Shown piece by piece: positions 2,584-9,904 of a stretch of DNA of 31,531 bases. Origin of the DNA: Gammaproteobacteria bacterium (lineage in GTDB: Bacteria; Pseudomonadota; Gammaproteobacteria; Burkholderiales; Burkholderiaceae_E). Where the stretch lies: positions 1 through 31,531 of the forward strand of contig JAUIAI010000001.1 in NCBI GenBank assembly GCA_030425615.1, read 5' to 3'. Made by a program: the position numbers and the translations under genes. Numbering within the stretch: the first letter of the stretch is position 1; the number at the start of each line of letters is the position of its first letter. The notes under the pieces were generated by a model. The model searched no databases. It was not told the origin of the DNA and worked only from the letters and a program-made list of their open reading frames with translations.

Positions 2584-2982
2584 CTAAAGCAGGCCCTTGA
2601 GCTGATCGAGCACGTATAGTCGCGGGGCGATGACGGCCTTGATCGCCTTCAGGCACGCAACGATGCCGAACACGGCGGGGAGCGCGGCGACCATTCCGCC
2701 CGTCGCCGCAGCAAACCACACGTCCGACTCGTCGAATTTGAGCGTCATATAGCCAGGATGCTTCTCACCGATTCGCCGATAGTTGCGGTACGCGGGCAGG
2801 AAGAAGAGCGGTACGATCGCGAAGCACAGGACGGCAACGATCAGGTTGCTCCAGAACCCCCATGCGAGGATCTCCTGCACGACGAGCGGCGCCTGCTCGG
2901 CGATGAACGCCGATCCCTGCTCCACGTACTGCATCACCGTGCCCACCGACTCGGTAAGCTTCTGTTCGAGATCTTCGTTCAT
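2584..2982 (-). CDS. Phage membrane protein (132 aa, two predicted TM segments)
   Basis: MNEDLEQKL...APLVVQEILAW...KAVIAPRLYVLDQL, with two hydrophobic stretches; ATGA-type overlap with the upstream gene. Confidence 0.8.
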   Translation of the reverse strand: MNEDLEQKLTESVGTVMQYVEQGSAFIAEQAPLVVQEILAWGFWSNLIVAVLCFAIVPLFFLPAYRNYRRIGEKHPGYMTLKFDESDVWFAAATGGMVAALPAVFGIVACLKAIKAVIAPRLYVLDQLKGLL

Positions 2983-3164
2983 TGCGAACCTCCGTTGACG
3001 TGAAAGATCCAGGCGCAGAGCAGCCCGAAGGCCATCACGCCGCCAATCGAGCAGCAGACGAGGAAGAACGCCGCCCGCAGCCCCGCGATCCGCTCGCGGT
3101 CCTCGTGCTGCATCCGCCGCTCGTGCGCGGCCAGCTCGTCGACTTGGCGCAGGTCGATGCTCAT
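2979..3164 (-). CDS. Small membrane protein (61 aa)
   Basis: MSIDLRQVDEL..., C-terminal hydrophobic helix, 4-bp overlaps at both ends. Confidence 0.7.
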   Translation of the reverse strand: MSIDLRQVDELAAHERRMQHEDRERIAGLRAAFFLVCCSIGGVMAFGLLCAWIFHVNGGSQ

Positions 3165-3349
3165 GACTTGACCTCGCTCGCATGGATCTCGCAAACCTCT
3201 GCGTCCTCGCACTCAGCCACGCAACTCCAGCAGAGGGAAACATCCGCGTCTTCTGCCGCCTTCTCGATGGCCTCTTCTTCCGTTTCGGCCTCGAACTCAC
3301 CGAGGTACTTTGATCCGACAACCTGCGCGTAGACTCGGAATCGCTTCAC
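3161..3349 (-). CDS. Small acidic hypothetical protein (62 aa, GTG start)
   Basis: VKRFRVYAQVVGSKYLGEFEAETEEEAIEKA...; GTGA overlap with the upstream stop. Confidence 0.75.
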   Translation of the reverse strand: MKRFRVYAQVVGSKYLGEFEAETEEEAIEKAAEDADVSLCWSCVAECEDAEVCEIHASEVKS

Positions 3350-3789
3350 GACCGATCCTCCGCCAGCCGCATCCCGCGCTCCTCGGCTTCGGCTTCCACG
3401 CGCGACTCGCACTCATCGCACAGCGCGTGGTCGGGGCGGGCGTACTGCTCCTCGCACGCGGGGCAGTTGAATTCCGAGTCCCAATCGCGGTTGAGCGAGT
3501 AGAGGATCGACTCCAGCACGTCGATCTCGTGGTCGTGCTTCTGCCGCAGCCGCTCGCGATCGTTCGCGTGCTCCGCGATGGCCCTGTCCGTCTGCCGTCG
3601 CGACTCCTCGAGCCGGGCGCGCAGCTCGTCGATCTGGCCGCGCAGCTCCGCCGTGGTCTGGTCGAACGACAGGAGCCGCGACCGGATGTCGTCGGCGCGG
3701 TCCGCGGTCATCGTCACCGGCTTGCGCGGGCCGCTCGGGGCGTCGCCGGGAAGGGCTACGTCGGCGGGGTGGGGCTGGGTGCTGGGCAT
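3346..3789 (-). CDS. Coiled-coil protein with C-terminal CxxC...CxxC zinc finger (147 aa)
   Basis: Heptad-like central region, then CPAC...CDEC; GAGGAG SD; first gene of the leftward operon. Confidence 0.8.
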   Translation of the reverse strand: MPSTQPHPADVALPGDAPSGPRKPVTMTADRADDIRSRLLSFDQTTAELRGQIDELRARLEESRRQTDRAIAEHANDRERLRQKHDHEIDVLESILYSLNRDWDSEFNCPACEEQYARPDHALCDECESRVEAEAEERGMRLAEDRS

Positions 3790-3828
3790 GTCGGGAATCT
3801 CCTCGGCGCTCCGTGCGCCATGCGGGTC

Positions 3829-3856
3829 ACTCTACAGGACTTCTCGGCGGGGTCAA
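3829..3856 (-). promoter_or_regulatory. Leftward sigma70-like early promoter (TTGACC-16-TAGAGT)
   Basis: Consensus-like -35 and -10 in the divergent intergenic gap. Confidence 0.55.
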
Positions 3857-3880
3857 CACTAAACTTTAAGATTTTCGCTG

Positions 3881-3910
3881 TTGACACAGATCGCAGGAAG
3901 CGGATAAGAT
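3881..3910 (+). promoter_or_regulatory. Rightward sigma70-like promoter (TTGACA-18-TAAGAT), probably leaderless
   Basis: Perfect -35 and near-consensus -10; the ATG lies 6 nt after the -10 with no SD. Confidence 0.65.
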
Positions 3911-3916
3911 CCCTGC

Positions 3917-4150
3917 ATGGACATCGACTCGTATCTCACGGCCAGGAACGAATCCGCTTCGCACTTTTCAAGGCGCGTCAGCCGCTTTAGGGACGTGTCT
4001 GCCGCCGCCATCATCAACATCCGGAACGGCACCGCGTCGCCCAGGATCGAGACGGCACAGGCGATCGTGCGGGCCTCCGAGGCTGAGCCTGCCCCTTGTG
4101 GGGGCACGATCTCCTACGAGGACCTTGCGCCTCGGGAGGAAGTCGCGTGA
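3917..4150 (+). CDS. Cro-like helix-turn-helix regulator (77 aa)
   Basis: HTH-like VSAAAIINIRNGTASPRIETAQAIVRAS and a GGTISYEDL tail typical of Cro/YdaS-like proteins; first gene after the divergent promoter. Confidence 0.75.
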   Translation: MDIDSYLTARNESASHFSRRVSRFRDVSAAAIINIRNGTASPRIETAQAIVRASEAEPAPCGGTISYEDLAPREEVA

Positions 4151-5203: not shown

Positions 5204-5484
5204 GCGAGCAGCAGCCGCTCGGCGTGCCGTACCAGCGGCACTCGGCCACCAGTAGGGACGCGGCCATCCTCGTCTCAGAGAAGCCCACGAAGATCGTGCA
5301 GGATCGGCAGAAGATCCTCGCGATGGTCCGCCGCAGCGGGCCGATGACCGATCGCGAGATCCAGGCTGCGCTCGAGATGCCAGGTGACACCGAACGCCCT
5401 CGCCGGATCGAGCTCGTCCGCGCCGGCTGGCTCATCGACACCGGGGAGCGGCGTGATCGCTCGACCGTGTGGGGGTGCTCATGA
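5200..5484 (+). CDS. Winged-helix DNA-binding protein (94 aa)
   Basis: HSATSRDAA...GPMTDREIQAALEM..DTERPRRIELVRAGWL.DTGERR, a common phage wHTH pattern. Confidence 0.75.
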   Translation: MSEQQPLGVPYQRHSATSRDAAILVSEKPTKIVQDRQKILAMVRRSGPMTDREIQAALEMPGDTERPRRIELVRAGWLIDTGERRDRSTVWGCS

Positions 5485-5870
5485 CTCCCGAAGACGTGTG
5501 GCCCGAGGTCACCGAAGCGTTCGCCTTCTACGGCAAGAAGGTGCTGCCCCTCAAGGGGCCGAAGCGGCGCCGACTCATTCAGGCGCTGCTCGACGAAGGC
5601 TTTACCAGCGAGGATCTCGTCGCGATCGTTCACGGCTACGTCTGGCGTCACGATGGCCTCGGTGTGAATGCCGATGGCTGGGACCCGAAGGTGCATTTCA
5701 CGCCCGACTCTGTGTTCGTCATGGAGAAGGCGGAGGACCGGCTAGAACGGGGCCAGAGAGGCCCTTGGCTCAGCCGGGAGGAACAGGTCAAGGCGCGGCA
5801 GAAGGCGGCGCGTGAGCGTGTAGAGGCGGCCCGAGCGGCTCAATCGGGAGGGCACCTCAAAGCGGTCTGA
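5481..5870 (+). CDS. Protein resembling the conserved C-terminal domain of phage replication initiators (Phg_2220_C-like, 129 aa)
   Basis: LIQALLDEGFTSEDLVAIV...W...FTPDSVF...K.E.RL pattern; family call made by eye. Confidence 0.55.
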   Translation: MTPEDVWPEVTEAFAFYGKKVLPLKGPKRRRLIQALLDEGFTSEDLVAIVHGYVWRHDGLGVNADGWDPKVHFTPDSVFVMEKAEDRLERGQRGPWLSREEQVKARQKAARERVEAARAAQSGGHLKAV

Positions 5871-6070
5871 GATTCATGGAGTGCGCTGTCGGATAACGGC
5901 GGGGCGCACTCGTCACATAGCCTCGGTCCTGCCGGTAAGAATCGAGGCCACCGTGGGAACGCCACACAACCGGCAGCGCCAGAGTGAGACGGAAGAGGGC
6001 GCGTGGCAGCCAGGGCCTTCGTGGTGAAAGCAACTTCCGCAGGGATGCTCCGTTAGCCCCGGACTACCCA
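5871..6070 (+). ncRNA. Putative structured RNA with hairpin and pseudoknot(s)
   Basis: GAGTGCGC/GCGCACTC stem (5879-5911). GCCTCG/CGAGGC stem (5920-5948) whose loop CTGCCGGT pairs with ACCGGCAG (5969-5976). Confidence 0.35.
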
Positions 6071-6125
6071 CCCGGTTCTGCATGGTCAGGACTGGTAGGC
6101 CCGACTCTGCCCCGGAATGGCCGGG
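6071..6125 (+). repeat. Degenerate 5-nt-period NNNGG tract upstream of the RAMP gene
   Basis: 7 of 11 phased pentamers end in GG; the resulting triplets are GGT, GGT, GGA, GGT, GGA, GGC, GGA. Confidence 0.4.
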
Positions 6126-6183
6126 AACAGGAGAGGTCTACCCGGATGCGGTCAGAATAGAGAACAGGAGCAAGGGGAGAGAC

Positions 6184-6774
6184 ATGGAAGAAGTGAAGTT
6201 TCGGTTAGAGGGATTGGGTGCCCAATTGATGAAGAACGGCCAGATGGCCGATCGCTTCAACCCGTTCACGAAGAAGGTCGCGGAGTACGCGAAGCGGGCC
6301 TCGAAACTGACCGAGGATGAGGTCCTCGAGAAGTACAGATACGAATGGGAAGGTTCGCTTTACCGAAATCCGAAAACGGGCGCCGTTGGTTGGCCTGCGG
6401 AGAACGTGCTGCGTTGCCTCCAGGGAGGAGCGAAGCGGTTGAAGCTAGGGAGGAATATCGAGCGTGGCGTTGTCGAGTCGGAGGGATTTTTCGATCTCAC
6501 CTACGACGGCCCCAAGGATGTCGACGGGCTTTGGGAGGATGGCCGCTTTGTGGATGTCCGAAACGTGAACGCGAACCCTTCGGCTGCGAAGAAAAGCACC
6601 GTTCAGCGGTGTCGGCCGATCTTCCCTGAGTGGTCGCTAGGCGTGGCATTCATCGTCGACACACGCGAAATCAGCGTCGAAGACCTGGAGCAGTGTATGG
6701 AGTTGGCTGGGCTCTATATCGGGCTTTCCGACTATCGCCCGCGCTTTGGTCGCTTCCGCTCGGAGAAGCTGTGA
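6184..6774 (+). CDS. Stand-alone Cas7/RAMP-like protein (196 aa), candidate Vipr-type RNA-guided effector
   Basis: RAMP-like architecture by eye: N-terminal strand VKFRLEGLGAQLMKN, WPAENVLRCLQGGAK (like IPGSSLKGALR), RCRPIFPEWSLGVAFIVD, and C-terminal Gly loop AGLYIGLSDYRPRFGRF. GGGGAG SD before ATG 6184. No other cas genes nearby. Confidence 0.8.
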   Translation: MEEVKFRLEGLGAQLMKNGQMADRFNPFTKKVAEYAKRASKLTEDEVLEKYRYEWEGSLYRNPKTGAVGWPAENVLRCLQGGAKRLKLGRNIERGVVESEGFFDLTYDGPKDVDGLWEDGRFVDVRNVNANPSAAKKSTVQRCRPIFPEWSLGVAFIVDTREISVEDLEQCMELAGLYIGLSDYRPRFGRFRSEKL

Positions 6775-7217
6775 TGGAGCGGTTTCCCCTGGATTTCGAT
6801 GCCCTGGAGAAGGGGCAGACTATCCATACGCAGGAGATAGAGGCGATTTATGGGATTCCGAAGGACGACCGGCAATTCCGTTTCAAGCTCATGGCGTTGC
6901 GAACTCAGATCGAGCATGAGCGGAGCGATCTGCTTGTTCGGGAGACGCGCGATGCACTTCGCATCATGACTGATCGGGAGGCGGACGAGTACCTCGAAGG
7001 CCAGACCGACAAATCGGTGAGCAGACTCAAGAGGACAGCTGCTCGCACGCTTCGCGTTGATCGTTCGGACTTTACGGATGCCGAGCGGCGGCTCTCAGAG
7101 TCTCGGAGTCGGAAAGCGACGATGATCGCGATGTTTGCCGAGAAGGGGCGTCGTGAATCTCGGAAGCAATTGGCCGAGGCGAAGCAGGCATTCATCGCCG
7201 AGAGTGCGACGGACTAA
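6774..7217 (+). CDS. Alpha-helical partner protein of the RAMP gene (147 aa)
   Basis: TGATG coupling to the RAMP stop; MERFPLDFDALEKGQTI...LRIMTDREADEY...VDRSDFTDAERR; basic and helical. Confidence 0.8.
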   Translation: MERFPLDFDALEKGQTIHTQEIEAIYGIPKDDRQFRFKLMALRTQIEHERSDLLVRETRDALRIMTDREADEYLEGQTDKSVSRLKRTAARTLRVDRSDFTDAERRLSESRSRKATMIAMFAEKGRRESRKQLAEAKQAFIAESATD

Positions 7218-7220
7218 CCG

Positions 7221-7385
7221 ATCGGACTGGATAGGAGCGGAGAGGAGAGGACTGGACGGCAGAGGAAAGGATGGCAGGGGAGGGCAACGGAGCGGAGAGG
7301 AGAGGAATGGAGCGGATCGGACGGCATGTGATCGGACCGGCAGGGAACGGATGGGAGCGCAGCGGATAGGAGCGGAAAGCAATGG
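7221..7385 (+). repeat. Phased pentamer array (A-NN-GG)x33, i.e. GGA/NN alternation; candidate guide-RNA (vrRNA-like) locus
   Basis: 33 consecutive pentamers with no indel. Position 1 is A in 32/33, position 4 is G in 32/33, position 5 is G in 27/33 (else C), and positions 2-3 vary. Fills the gap from the TAA at 7215-7217 to the ATG at 7382. Confidence 0.92.
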
Positions 7386-7546
7386 ACTTTCACGAAAGAC
7401 GGATTCTGTACTACTCGAACTTGCTGGCGAAGCCGGCAGTAGACGAATGGGCCAGGGGGATCATGGGGGCGGCAGCGATGGACTACGCCAGGTCGAAAGT
7501 CGGGTGGCCGAGTCTCCGGGTGGTCCGTGACGACGAAGAGGAGTGA
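7382..7546 (+). CDS. Hypothetical protein (54 aa, MDFHERRILYYSNLL...LRVVRDDEEE)
   Basis: Translated by hand; in-frame TAGs within the array prevent upstream extension. Confidence 0.6.
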   Translation: MDFHERRILYYSNLLAKPAVDEWARGIMGAAAMDYARSKVGWPSLRVVRDDEEE

Positions 7547-7706
7547 CGCCATTGAGCGCCGCGCCGACCGCTTGATGCGCATGGTCGACGACTTCCTGGG
7601 CGAGCCCTCGACGAAGTGGCTGAACGATGCGCGGATCGAGATTCTCGGCGGCTTGCTCGAGCGGATCGAGCTGGCGATCGCCGAAGCGAAGGAGCGGACG
7701 TTTTGA
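7527..7706 (+). CDS. Hypothetical helical protein (59 aa, GTG start)
   Basis: Translated by hand: MTTKRSDAIERRADRLMRMVDDFLGE...; start is uncertain. Confidence 0.55.
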   Translation: MTTKRSDAIERRADRLMRMVDDFLGEPSTKWLNDARIEILGGLLERIELAIAEAKERTF

Positions 7707-9628: not shown

Positions 9629-9870
9629 TGGCAGCGCGCTACAAGGGACCGGATCGAGGGACGGAGCACAAGCGAGTCAACGGCTCGGCGGTGGGGAGCA
9701 ACACCCAGAACGAACGCTACGAGGTCCACGTCCGCTGCCGAGAGTGCGACGCCCCGTTCTCGTTCTGGAAGTGGACCCACCGAAAGCGCGCCGATCAGCC
9801 CGACCTGCGAGTCTGCGCTCACTGCGCCGCGCTCAAGTGGGCAGCCCAGGGAAATCGCCCTGTCTCCTGA
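9628..9870 (+). CDS. Small zinc-ribbon protein (80 aa)
   Basis: CREC...CAHC; coupled start. Confidence 0.65.
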   Translation: MAARYKGPDRGTEHKRVNGSAVGSNTQNERYEVHVRCRECDAPFSFWKWTHRKRADQPDLRVCAHCAALKWAAQGNRPVS

Positions 9871-9904
9871 TTGTGTTTGCGATACAGCCCAAGCCGGGAA
9901 TCCT
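9869..9904 (+). promoter_or_regulatory. Putative late promoter, copy 1 (GATTGTGTTTGCGATACAG-N11-AATCCT)
   Basis: 18/19 identical to 12156-12174, with an identically spaced ATCCT; lies at the start of the packaging operon. Confidence 0.55.

Follow-up and report, generated by a model that had tools for sequence, protein, structure and literature searches.

VIPR (Viral Interference Programmable Repeat) is a CRISPR-related RNA-guided DNA silencing system described in preprints of 2026 (10.64898/2026.04.26.720920, 10.64898/2026.04.26.720927 and 10.64898/2026.10.15.759431), to which the preliminary description of the present locus had correctly pointed. Filament assembly, the contacts with G1, G2 and Y3 of the repeat, the 1-nt skip rule and silencing were reported (10.64898/2026.04.26.720920,.720927), and the arrays of Escherichia phage SUSP1, which carries a type II VIPR (vipr, vap1 and vrRNAs), were determined experimentally as guides (10.64898/2026.04.26.720920). 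The published guides are about 100 nt in length with 9-16 repeats, and each has a pseudoknot tail (10.64898/2026.04.26.720920,.720927). The Y3 pocket of SUSP1 is reported to exclude purines sterically, and silencing was abolished by perturbation of GGY, with GGY>GGA among the tested constructs (10.64898/2026.04.26.720920,.720927). Guides and Vipr move between phages (10.64898/2026.10.15.759431), and VIPR was reported to be without self-targets in its own phage (10.64898/2026.04.26.720920 /.720927). Biochemistry and structures of VIPR have so far all come from GGY-type systems.

The stretch of DNA analysed here (hereafter the window, 31,531 nt) lies on contig JAUIAI010000001.1 (GCA_030425615.1), and all three parts of the module named in the preliminary description were found in it on the plus strand. 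The first gene, vipr (ORF1, 6184..6774, 196 aa), is followed by vap (ORF2, 6774..7217, 147 aa), and the TGA of vipr (6772-6774) shares one base with the ATG of vap, which gives the TGATG coupling described before. The TAA of vap stands at 7215-7217, and the phased vrRNA array begins 7 nt downstream and was counted as 33 in-phase pentamers (7224..7388), in agreement with the 33-unit, 5-nt-phased array noticed just past the partner's stop. Among the ORFs scanned with PHROGs, those flanking the module include Sak, SSB, HNH, RusA, terminase, portal and tail genes, and the remaining ORFs scanned were ordinary phage genes; the locus is thus virus- or provirus-encoded. In the 4.27-Mb MAG, vipr is the sole Vipr gene and the array is the sole one of its kind. 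The region 6158-7562 is very probably a VIPR cassette of a tailed phage, composed of vipr, a Vap1-like gene and a 33-unit GGA guide array.

The limits of the cassette were obtained from the sibling phage contigs X4 and X5 (from two wastewater metagenomes), in which exactly 6158-7562 is absent; therefore the module was regarded as a cassette (6158..7562, plus strand), the presence or absence of which, as one unit, distinguishes sibling phages. X4 and X5 join 6157 to 7563 via 40 other letters, including three GGA-phased units, and their flanks differ from the window at 11 positions in 5360-6157 and at one position in 7563-7660. The 3' part of the cassette (7389..7562, plus strand) lies inside the indel and holds a 54-aa ORF (7382-7546, plus strand), for which no homologue was found among 5.8 billion protein clusters and no match was found in PHROGs or Pfam. 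X4 and X5 resemble the VIPR-null phages with solo vrRNAs (10.64898/2026.10.15.759431) in having a short GGA-phased stretch at the site without vipr-vap; they differ in that about three phased units are too few for a guide, and they are metagenome contigs only.

Residues 9-194 of ORF1 matched the SUSP1 Vipr protein (PDB 36pp_D) with an E value of 6.2e-17 (phmmer against PDB) at 29% identity, and ORF1 matched phrog_4652 at 8.7e-34 in PHROGs; a search of 1.84 billion cluster representatives gave 2046 relatives (E<=1e-3). The AF2 model (pLDDT 96.2) was compared with AFDB clusters, and ranks 1 and 3-6 were taken by A0A661D0E2, X1U2U4, A0A0F9A1L0, A0A1F4YLN4 and A0A2D6XG06 (best TM 0.89), which make up the set of five founding Vipr entries in the discovery preprint (10.64898/2026.04.26.720920); Csm3/Cmr RAMPs came next. 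Judged from homology and the model, ORF1 is a Vipr protein, that is, a minimal Cas7-like RAMP with a predicted single RRM core, glycine-rich loop and thumb, which bears out the RAMP/Cas7-like layout proposed earlier. Helix-1 (residues 72-84), the thumb (residues ~130-145) and the G-loop (residues 176-191, with G-L-S-D-Y-R-P-R-F-G-R-F) were located on it. The RNA-contact residues R138, D177, W178 and R179 of SUSP1 correspond in the alignment to R144, D183, Y184 and R185 of the window protein, respectively, and the P. fulva Vipr likewise has a Tyr (Y176) at the position of W178. The G1-contacting His17 of SUSP1 is replaced by Lys (K17), as it is in 10 of the 74 aligned relatives, and Lys33 of SUSP1 is replaced by Ala. 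In the window clade, 3 extra residues that include an invariant Trp (W70) precede helix-1, and the thumb is longer by 5 residues.

ORF2 matched by blastp the post-vipr gene of six other loci (L016, L009, L008, L011, L010 and L013) at 1e-39 to 3e-6. The ORF2 family was aligned by hhalign with the SUSP1-type Vap1 family (represented by bumzen_42, LESphi2 P21_8, Medea1_0008, LittleE gp33 and others) over 147 columns (probability 93.6%, E=2e-7), so that ORF2, by profile homology, is a Vap1-like accessory protein and the coupled partner of the preliminary description is placed in the Vap1-type family. Its AF2 model (pLDDT 90) shows residues 16-64 as a winged-helix-like N-terminal domain and residues 67-146 as a long helical hairpin. 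The winged-helix matches were weak (Pfam ScpB at 0.0017; MarR, ScpB and Z-alpha by Foldseek, none of them significant).

The array consists of 25 GGA, 6 GCA, 1 TGA and 1 GGC units, so that 8 of the 33 are not GGA; G-G/C-A makes up the constant part, with A as the third base in 32 units. The entropies at the five positions were 0.20, 0.68, 0.20, 1.93 and 1.95 bits, respectively; of the 16 possible NN dinucleotides, 13 are represented. When in-phase GGA was counted per 165-nt sliding window on both strands of the 31.5-kb window, 25 were found at the array and at most 6 elsewhere, and the binomial probability of at least 24 GGA in 33 units is ~1e-32. Neither a spacer nor a break of phase occurs over the 165 nt. 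About 30 homologue loci were examined, and in each of them GG-phased arrays of 5-nt period lie on the vipr strand, at the position relative to vipr that the array has in the window, which agrees with the expectation that such an array would consistently adjoin the homologues. Together with the Vipr and Vap1-type homologies, this identifies the locus as VIPR-like, as had been proposed.

The features shared with the SUSP1 system are the Vipr homology, the Arg, Asp, aromatic and Arg contacts with G1 and G2, the coupled downstream Vap1-type winged-helix partner, same-strand arrays in flanking non-coding DNA, and a phage-encoded locus without self-target. The differences are that the repeat is GGY in SUSP1 and GGA in the window; that SUSP1 has separate, tailed guides of ~100 nt, whereas the window has one uninterrupted 33-unit array; and that Gly176 and His17 of SUSP1 are replaced by Ser and Lys in the window protein, the thumb of which is 5 residues longer. 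The same gene pair and array layout are found in the VIPR of a Pseudomonas fulva prophage and in relatives such as P. aeruginosa phage LESphi2 (P21_9/P21_8) and phage Medea1, the Vipr proteins of which are 31-34% identical to that of the window, with a Tyr stacking on G2 in both; however, this group has GGC/GGT arrays that close with a GGG unit and carry a tail, and Cys or Gly in the G-loop. GGA-NN arrays also adjoin the Vipr gene in other loci (L021/P0009, L150/P0024 and L151/P0045; L044, L083, L133, L116 and L110 from IMG/VR; and others), most of which have a G-L-S-D/E G-loop, with Gly or Cys in place of Ser in some distant ones. These loci differ from the window in belonging to separate lineages with at most 40% identity to the window protein and, in many cases, in having separate guides of 11-17 units whose end is conserved (for example GGAAT-GGCTT).

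The third constant base is thus A in the window array and not the pyrimidine of GGY. Because 'a related consensus' is permitted for some types in the VIPR preprint (10.64898/2026.04.26.720927 /.720920), this bars the locus from the GGY-type consensus and not from VIPR. GGA arrays are carried by the window clade (L008, L009, L016 and L024), and relatives at <=43% identity have GGC/GGT. The distinct GGA subtype suggested in the preliminary description was therefore upheld as a clade-specific character and not noise, but it is not unique, with GGA arrays adjoining Vipr genes in several other IMG/VR lineages. The window locus is a natural specificity variant of known VIPR and, in other respects, an unremarkable new family member.

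Reading of GGA would need a remodelled pocket, because purines are excluded by the SUSP1 pocket and silencing is lost on perturbation of GGY. In the Vipr sub-family of the window, GGA accompanies a Gly/Cys-to-Ser replacement in the G-loop (S182, equivalent to G176 of SUSP1); Ser at this position forecast GGA rightly in three loci fetched later (P0009, P0024 and P0045), and at least 2 origins of Ser are needed on the tree, with 4 by parsimony. As the sole determinant of GGA, Ser182 was rejected: four distant lineages (L116, L110, L126 and L076) combine GGA with Cys or Gly, therefore Ser cannot be the only determinant. It is suggested, tentatively and with more doubt than confidence, that the G-loop Gly/Cys-to-Ser replacement has repeatedly re-specified the third base from pyrimidine to A, aided in the window clade by the Trp insertion and the longer thumb, and has made orthogonal VIPR 'dialects' with guides of up to 33 units (a target of ~99 bp) and no pseudoknot tail. 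If true, such dialects would stop the Vipr of a phage from loading rival guides or solo vrRNAs. How recognition of the repeat is encoded can be tested directly on a natural GGA lineage with a simple candidate determinant that recurs in independent lineages. Such a lineage also hints at a means by which phages reserve their guide-loading machinery for themselves when rivals donate or steal guides and, for tool building, at orthogonal Vipr/repeat pairs usable side by side.

By homology with VIPR of SUSP1 and of P. fulva, the array would be transcribed together with, or just behind, vipr-vap, and each pentamer would be bound by one Vipr protomer. G1 and G2 would be held by Asp183 and Tyr184 of the G-loop and Arg144 of the thumb, and A3 would be seated in a pocket built by helix-1 and the G-loop of the next protomer, with the NN dinucleotides displayed along a helical filament. 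The filament would read double-stranded DNA as two paired bases and then one skipped, and would block the transcription of a competing mobile element, with the silencing probably assisted by the winged-helix Vap.

Targets were searched for according to the published 1-nt skip rule (two paired bases, one skipped). The best 1-nt-skip score in the MAG was 31, against 28, 36 and 33 for 0-, 2- and 3-nt skips, respectively, and the best score in the phage contig was 25 (shuffle mean 22.4, 95th percentile 26), so that no self-target was detected there. One match with <=3 mismatches was obtained from 172 same-family genomes, which is about chance. Exact 9-unit seeds gave no match in IMG/VR, and exact 10-unit seeds matched 0 and 2 times in GTDB genomes and 4 times in JGI metagenomes, with no match extending past the seed. 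When the array was read as codons in both senses with the skipped base as the wobble position, tblastn against GenBank phages gave no match. No match rose above the controls. Such a failure is expected if the competitor is unsequenced, and it may be absent from the collections.

The absence of a detectable target also bears on whether the cassette is decaying or inactive, with intact genes, an array that has drifted or fused and working guides that have been lost. This reading draws as well on the eight non-GGA units, on the lack of spacer and tail, and on the sibling phage having lost the cassette entirely. It likewise draws on the degenerate GG-phased tract upstream (6074..6128, plus strand, 7/11 pentamers), which may be a decayed upstream guide and lies where the four relatives of the window clade (L008, L009, L016 and L024) keep a clean GGA array upstream of vipr; the tract is uncertain, lies outside the cassette, was unscored by the array scanner and occurs in the sibling without the cassette too. 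Decay is nevertheless considered unlikely. The G-C-A units appear to be tolerated, because each close relative (L009, L016 and L024) repeatedly has them in its arrays as well; no phase break occurs in 165 nt, neither ORF is disrupted and both are conserved, long GGA arrays of 26-44 units without interruption lie beside the intact Vipr genes of L151 and L116, and a missing target is what an unsequenced competitor would give.

No promoter and no plus-strand terminator were found around the array, and no promoter-like site lies between the vap stop and the array. The 184 nt 3' of the array folded no better than shuffles (z = +1.07), the sequence there is unconserved among the closest relatives, and Rfam gave one chance-level lncRNA match, located upstream. 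The locus sequence was found in DNA metagenomes only and in no RNA run. An array 7 nt past the vap stop with no promoter-like site between them would suit a cis-acting, Vipr-binding 3' UTR element (for autoregulation or mRNA stabilisation), and the traffic of guides and Vipr between phages (10.64898/2026.10.15.759431) would suit a decoy for a rival Vipr. Either role is very improbable, since neither the near-maximal diversity of NN nor an NN content that differs in each relative is needed by a pure binding site, and the homologous SUSP1 arrays are guides by experiment.

An origin of the array as a slippage microsatellite, or as low-complexity coding sequence of an overlapping ORF (7135-7530 on the plus strand; 7095-7382 and 7214-7582 on the minus strand), is hardly tenable. 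Tandem Repeats Finder reported periods of 5, 10, 15 and 20, and the array leaves all six frames nearly open, but a 5-nt period shifts the reading frame at every unit, constant positions stand sharply apart from variable ones, from locus to locus the type of array follows the Vipr clade, the annotated N-terminus of Gordonia phage Trine gp40 is a translated array, and no conserved product of an overlapping ORF was seen in relatives. The chance that ORF1 is a stray Cas7/Csm3 gene left from a class 1 CRISPR-Cas system is negligible: the best solved structures in the fold library are Csm3 subunits of type III complexes (E ~3e-5, TM ~0.5), and Csm3 and Cmr4/6 share with it the RRM core, glycine-rich loop, thumb, guide-RNA polymerisation and periodic base flipping, but the sequence-level match is Vipr and no Cas7, the AFDB Vipr entries (TM 0.89) stand far above the Cmr/Csm entries, and those RAMPs have a 6-nt period with contiguous pairing and depend on further Cas subunits, on Cas6 processing and on a CRISPR array, none of which is present here. 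In line with the preliminary description, no CRISPR repeat was found by Tandem Repeats Finder, and ORF1, ORF2 and the 54-aa ORF matched no cas or defence model of PADLOC or NCBIfam and no Cas profile of Pfam.

As for the other relatives of the VIPR cassette, a wider search with peptide patterns in IMG/VR, GTDB genomes and JGI metagenomes returned distant relatives only or nothing for the window's own clade. The window array, at 33 contiguous units, departs from the published guides of about 9-16 repeats with a conserved structured 3' tail. The arrays of the other GGA-type loci nearly all finish with one GGC/GGT/GGG unit (GGCTT in L083, GGCTG in L110, 20 times, GGCAG in L076, GGCGG in L126, GGCAC in L008 and GGCAT in L024), and the lone GG-pyrimidine unit of the window array is unit 24 (GGCAG, 7339..7343, plus strand), which by analogy may be the 3' end of a first guide composed of units 1-24.

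Just 5' of the array, the letters 7219-7223 are possibly a degenerate unit 0.

The gene pair and the array were delimited on the forward strand. ORF1 (vipr, 196 aa, 6184-6774) ends in a TGA overlapping the ATG of ORF2 (vap, 147 aa, 6774-7217), which is translationally coupled to it, and the pentamer array (7224-7388) begins 7 bases past the ORF2 stop. The array is one unbroken run of 33 units in strict 5-nt phase with zero phase breaks (25 GGA, 6 GCA, 1 TGA and 1 GGC). Entropy was 0.20, 0.68 and 0.20 bits at positions 1-3 and 1.93 and 1.95 bits at positions 4-5, respectively, and 13 of the 16 NN dinucleotides were used. In-phase GGA per 165-nt sliding window reached 25 at the array and at most 6 elsewhere on both strands of the window (binomial probability, ~1e-32), which confirmed the coupled pair and phased array of the preliminary description.

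ORF1 had zero matches in Pfam, NCBIfam and PADLOC, and fell in phrog_4652 (8.7e-34). One solved structure was matched by sequence, PDB 36pp, 'SUSP1 Vipr protein' (E=6.2e-17, residues 9-194), from an Escherichia phage with a characterised type II VIPR (Viral Interference Programmable Repeat). An AlphaFold2 model was built from a 67-sequence alignment (pLDDT 96.2), and five of its six best matches among AlphaFold DB clusters (A0A661D0E2, with TM 0.89, X1U2U4, A0A0F9A1L0, A0A1F4YLN4 and A0A2D6XG06) were exactly the five proteins that the discovery preprint lists in its Methods as founding Vipr hits (10.64898/2026.04.26.720920). Cmr6- and Csm-type RAMPs followed behind the Vipr entries, and Csm3 subunits were the best matches (E ~3e-5) in a PDB fold library older than the solved Vipr structures; the RAMP/Cas7-like layout first noticed in the sequence was borne out. 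With 2046 clusters matching at E<=1e-3 out of 1.84 billion representatives, the Vipr family is large, and the window Vipr represents its own 50%-identity cluster.

For ORF2, zero word-level relatives were found. It was 27-47% identical to the gene directly after vipr in six metagenomic loci, and its family matched the SUSP1-type Vap1 family by hhalign (93.6% probability, E=2e-7), in support of the proposed helical partner. Its model (pLDDT 90) starts with a small winged-helix-like domain and continues into a long helical hairpin; the fold matches were weak and all winged-helix DNA binders, in agreement with the published account of type II Vap proteins, which predicts them to bind DNA (10.64898/2026.04.26.720920).

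About 30 loci encoding Vipr relatives, from GenBank phages, metagenome contigs, IMG/VR and GTDB, were scanned on both strands for 5-nt-phased GG. Arrays were present on the vipr strand at every locus, upstream and/or downstream of the gene pair, as had been anticipated. With homology to SUSP1 Vipr, a Vap1-type partner and same-strand arrays at relatives, the locus is identified by sequence as a VIPR system built like those of SUSP1 and P. fulva (type II-like), which supports the VIPR-like reading first proposed. Its carrier is an uncultivated tailed phage found in biofloc and wastewater samples.

VIPR consists of the Vipr protein and guide RNAs (vrRNAs) of alternating GGY/NN motifs, and silences transcription of competing phages or satellites (10.64898/2026.04.26.720920, 10.64898/2026.04.26.720927, 10.64898/2026.10.15.759431). 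One Vipr protomer binds per pentamer with GGY buried, and NN pairs with double-stranded DNA, every third target base being skipped (10.64898/2026.04.26.720920, 10.64898/2026.04.26.720927). Judged on sequence, the window system is a variant of published VIPR in three respects, namely its third constant base, which is adenine instead of a pyrimidine, its array, which is very long and has no tail, and its G-loop, which has Ser182 where SUSP1 has G176. The preprint texts go no further than 'a related consensus' and NNNGG-type repeats for certain VIPR types, so GGA arrays may already be known to the VIPR authors.

The repeat type followed the Vipr clade. GGA arrays with occasional GCA, like that of the window, were carried by the window's clade (loci L008, L009, L016/17 and L024, 60-63% identity), whereas relatives of at most 43% identity had GGC/GGT arrays (Gordonia phage Trine, mycobacteriophages LittleE and prophiBWHA-1, Pseudomonas phages LESphi2 and Medea1, Felixounavirus bumzen and several metagenomic contigs). 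The GGA repeat type is thus read as a heritable property of a lineage, in line with the distinct subtype suggested at first.

In SUSP1 Vipr, G1 is contacted by H17 and D177, G2 by R138 and W178, and the Y3 pocket (E71, M72, C173, T175 and R179) 'sterically excludes purines' (10.64898/2026.04.26.720927). Guide constructs included GGY>GGA, and silencing was reported to be abolished when GGY was perturbed (10.64898/2026.04.26.720920, 10.64898/2026.04.26.720927). The G1/G2 contact residues are kept in the window Vipr as R144, D183, Y184 and R185 (alignments A4/A5). Its clade has Ser182 (G-L-S-D) at a position that is Gly or Cys in GGY systems, a 3-residue insertion directly before helix-1 with an invariant Trp70, and a thumb longer by 5 residues. 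The relative P0009 (39% identical) has the Ser and neither insertion, and its locus carries GGA arrays; so do P0024 and P0045, further Ser-bearing representatives picked before their arrays were known.

Searched in the reverse direction, for seven GGA-NN units in a row, IMG/VR yielded 118 stretches, and a Vipr gene accompanied 9 of these. G-L-S-D/E was present in three of the four strong family members and in the more distant L117; Cys or Gly stood in place of the Ser in five loci, namely L116, the remaining strong member, and L110, L126, L076 and L103, which are more distant. On a maximum-likelihood tree of 74 Vipr relatives, in which the window's clade stands on a long, fully supported branch, Ser required 4 changes by parsimony, at least two being forced by well-supported branches. 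Given these origins and the blind picks, yet five GGA loci lacking it, Ser182 is regarded as correlating repeatedly, but not universally, with GGA in this sub-family, which falls short of proof of causation.

At other GGA-type loci each guide ends with a single GGC, GGT or GGG unit. Unit 24 (7339-7343) is the only such unit in the window array and, by analogy, may mark the boundary between a guide of 24 units and one of 9. The stretch from vap to the array showed no promoter-like site, and the sequence past the array no terminator. The 184 nt behind the array were no more structured than shuffles and were not conserved in L009 or L016, and a 54-aa ORF starting in the last array units had zero relatives anywhere. 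Close relatives carry a clean GGA array directly upstream of vipr, where the window has a degenerate GG-phased tract (6074-6128, 7/11 units phased). Near-duplicate units (GGAGC-GGAGA-GGAGA-GGA(C/A)T) were seen at 3-6 and 14-17, 55 nt apart, and a similar 5-unit duplication, 40 nt apart, in the upstream array of L009, which suggests that arrays grow by internal duplication.

Several further arrays were recorded. L116 has a 44-unit unbroken GGA array (9682-9901) directly 3' of its Vipr gene, so the window is not alone in having a very long tail-less array. L110 has a very large array (2768-4053) beside a distant Vipr with a C-terminal extension; it is built of twenty GGA-type guides in succession, 6-17 units in length, which all end in GGAAA-GGAAC-GGCTG and are just 4 nt apart. 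In Trine (L001, MH271318), the annotated gp40 N-terminus (3088-3381) overlaps a 13-unit GGC array (3131-3195) and reads Gly/Ala/Arg-rich over it; Vap itself probably starts near residue 99, with the array between vipr and vap. In L016 (1660-1720), a tRNA-like 3' end, with a GGTTCGATTCC T-arm and then an acceptor stem ending CCA, lies ~100 nt past the downstream GGA array and is possibly an attachment-site remnant. Two other contigs of the window's own MAG, C482 (12-385) and C814 (136-215), hold further runs of 13-16 units in which GG is phased at 5 nt and the third base is mixed (C/A/T); as no Vipr gene was detectable there by HMM, these runs could either be solo guides or belong to a different type of VIPR.

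Targets were searched on both strands by the published skip rule, with each constant triplet replaced by one wildcard. None scored above controls with other skip lengths in the own MAG, above chance in 172 genomes of the same family, or above shuffled guides in the own contig, the last indicating that self-targeting is absent. No exact seed in IMG/VR, GTDB genomes or JGI metagenomes could be extended, and a codon-decoded peptide search of GenBank phages gave zero matches.

A sibling phage was present on contigs of two wastewater metagenomes (X4 and X5), in which a stretch of 40 other letters, with three GGA-phased units in it, connects 6157 to 7563. Its flanks differed from the window at 11 positions in 5360-6157 and 1 in 7563-7660. 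As 6158-7562 is missing between near-identical flanks, vipr, vap, the array and the following 174 nt appear, in these assembled contigs, to be gained or lost as one 1405-nt unit. This loss recalls the vipr-vap1 deletions reported for SUSP1 relatives (10.64898/2026.10.15.759431). Upstream of vipr, a non-coding stretch of ~300 nt (5871-6157) is shared with the VIPR-less sibling in conserved form and therefore lies outside the cassette.
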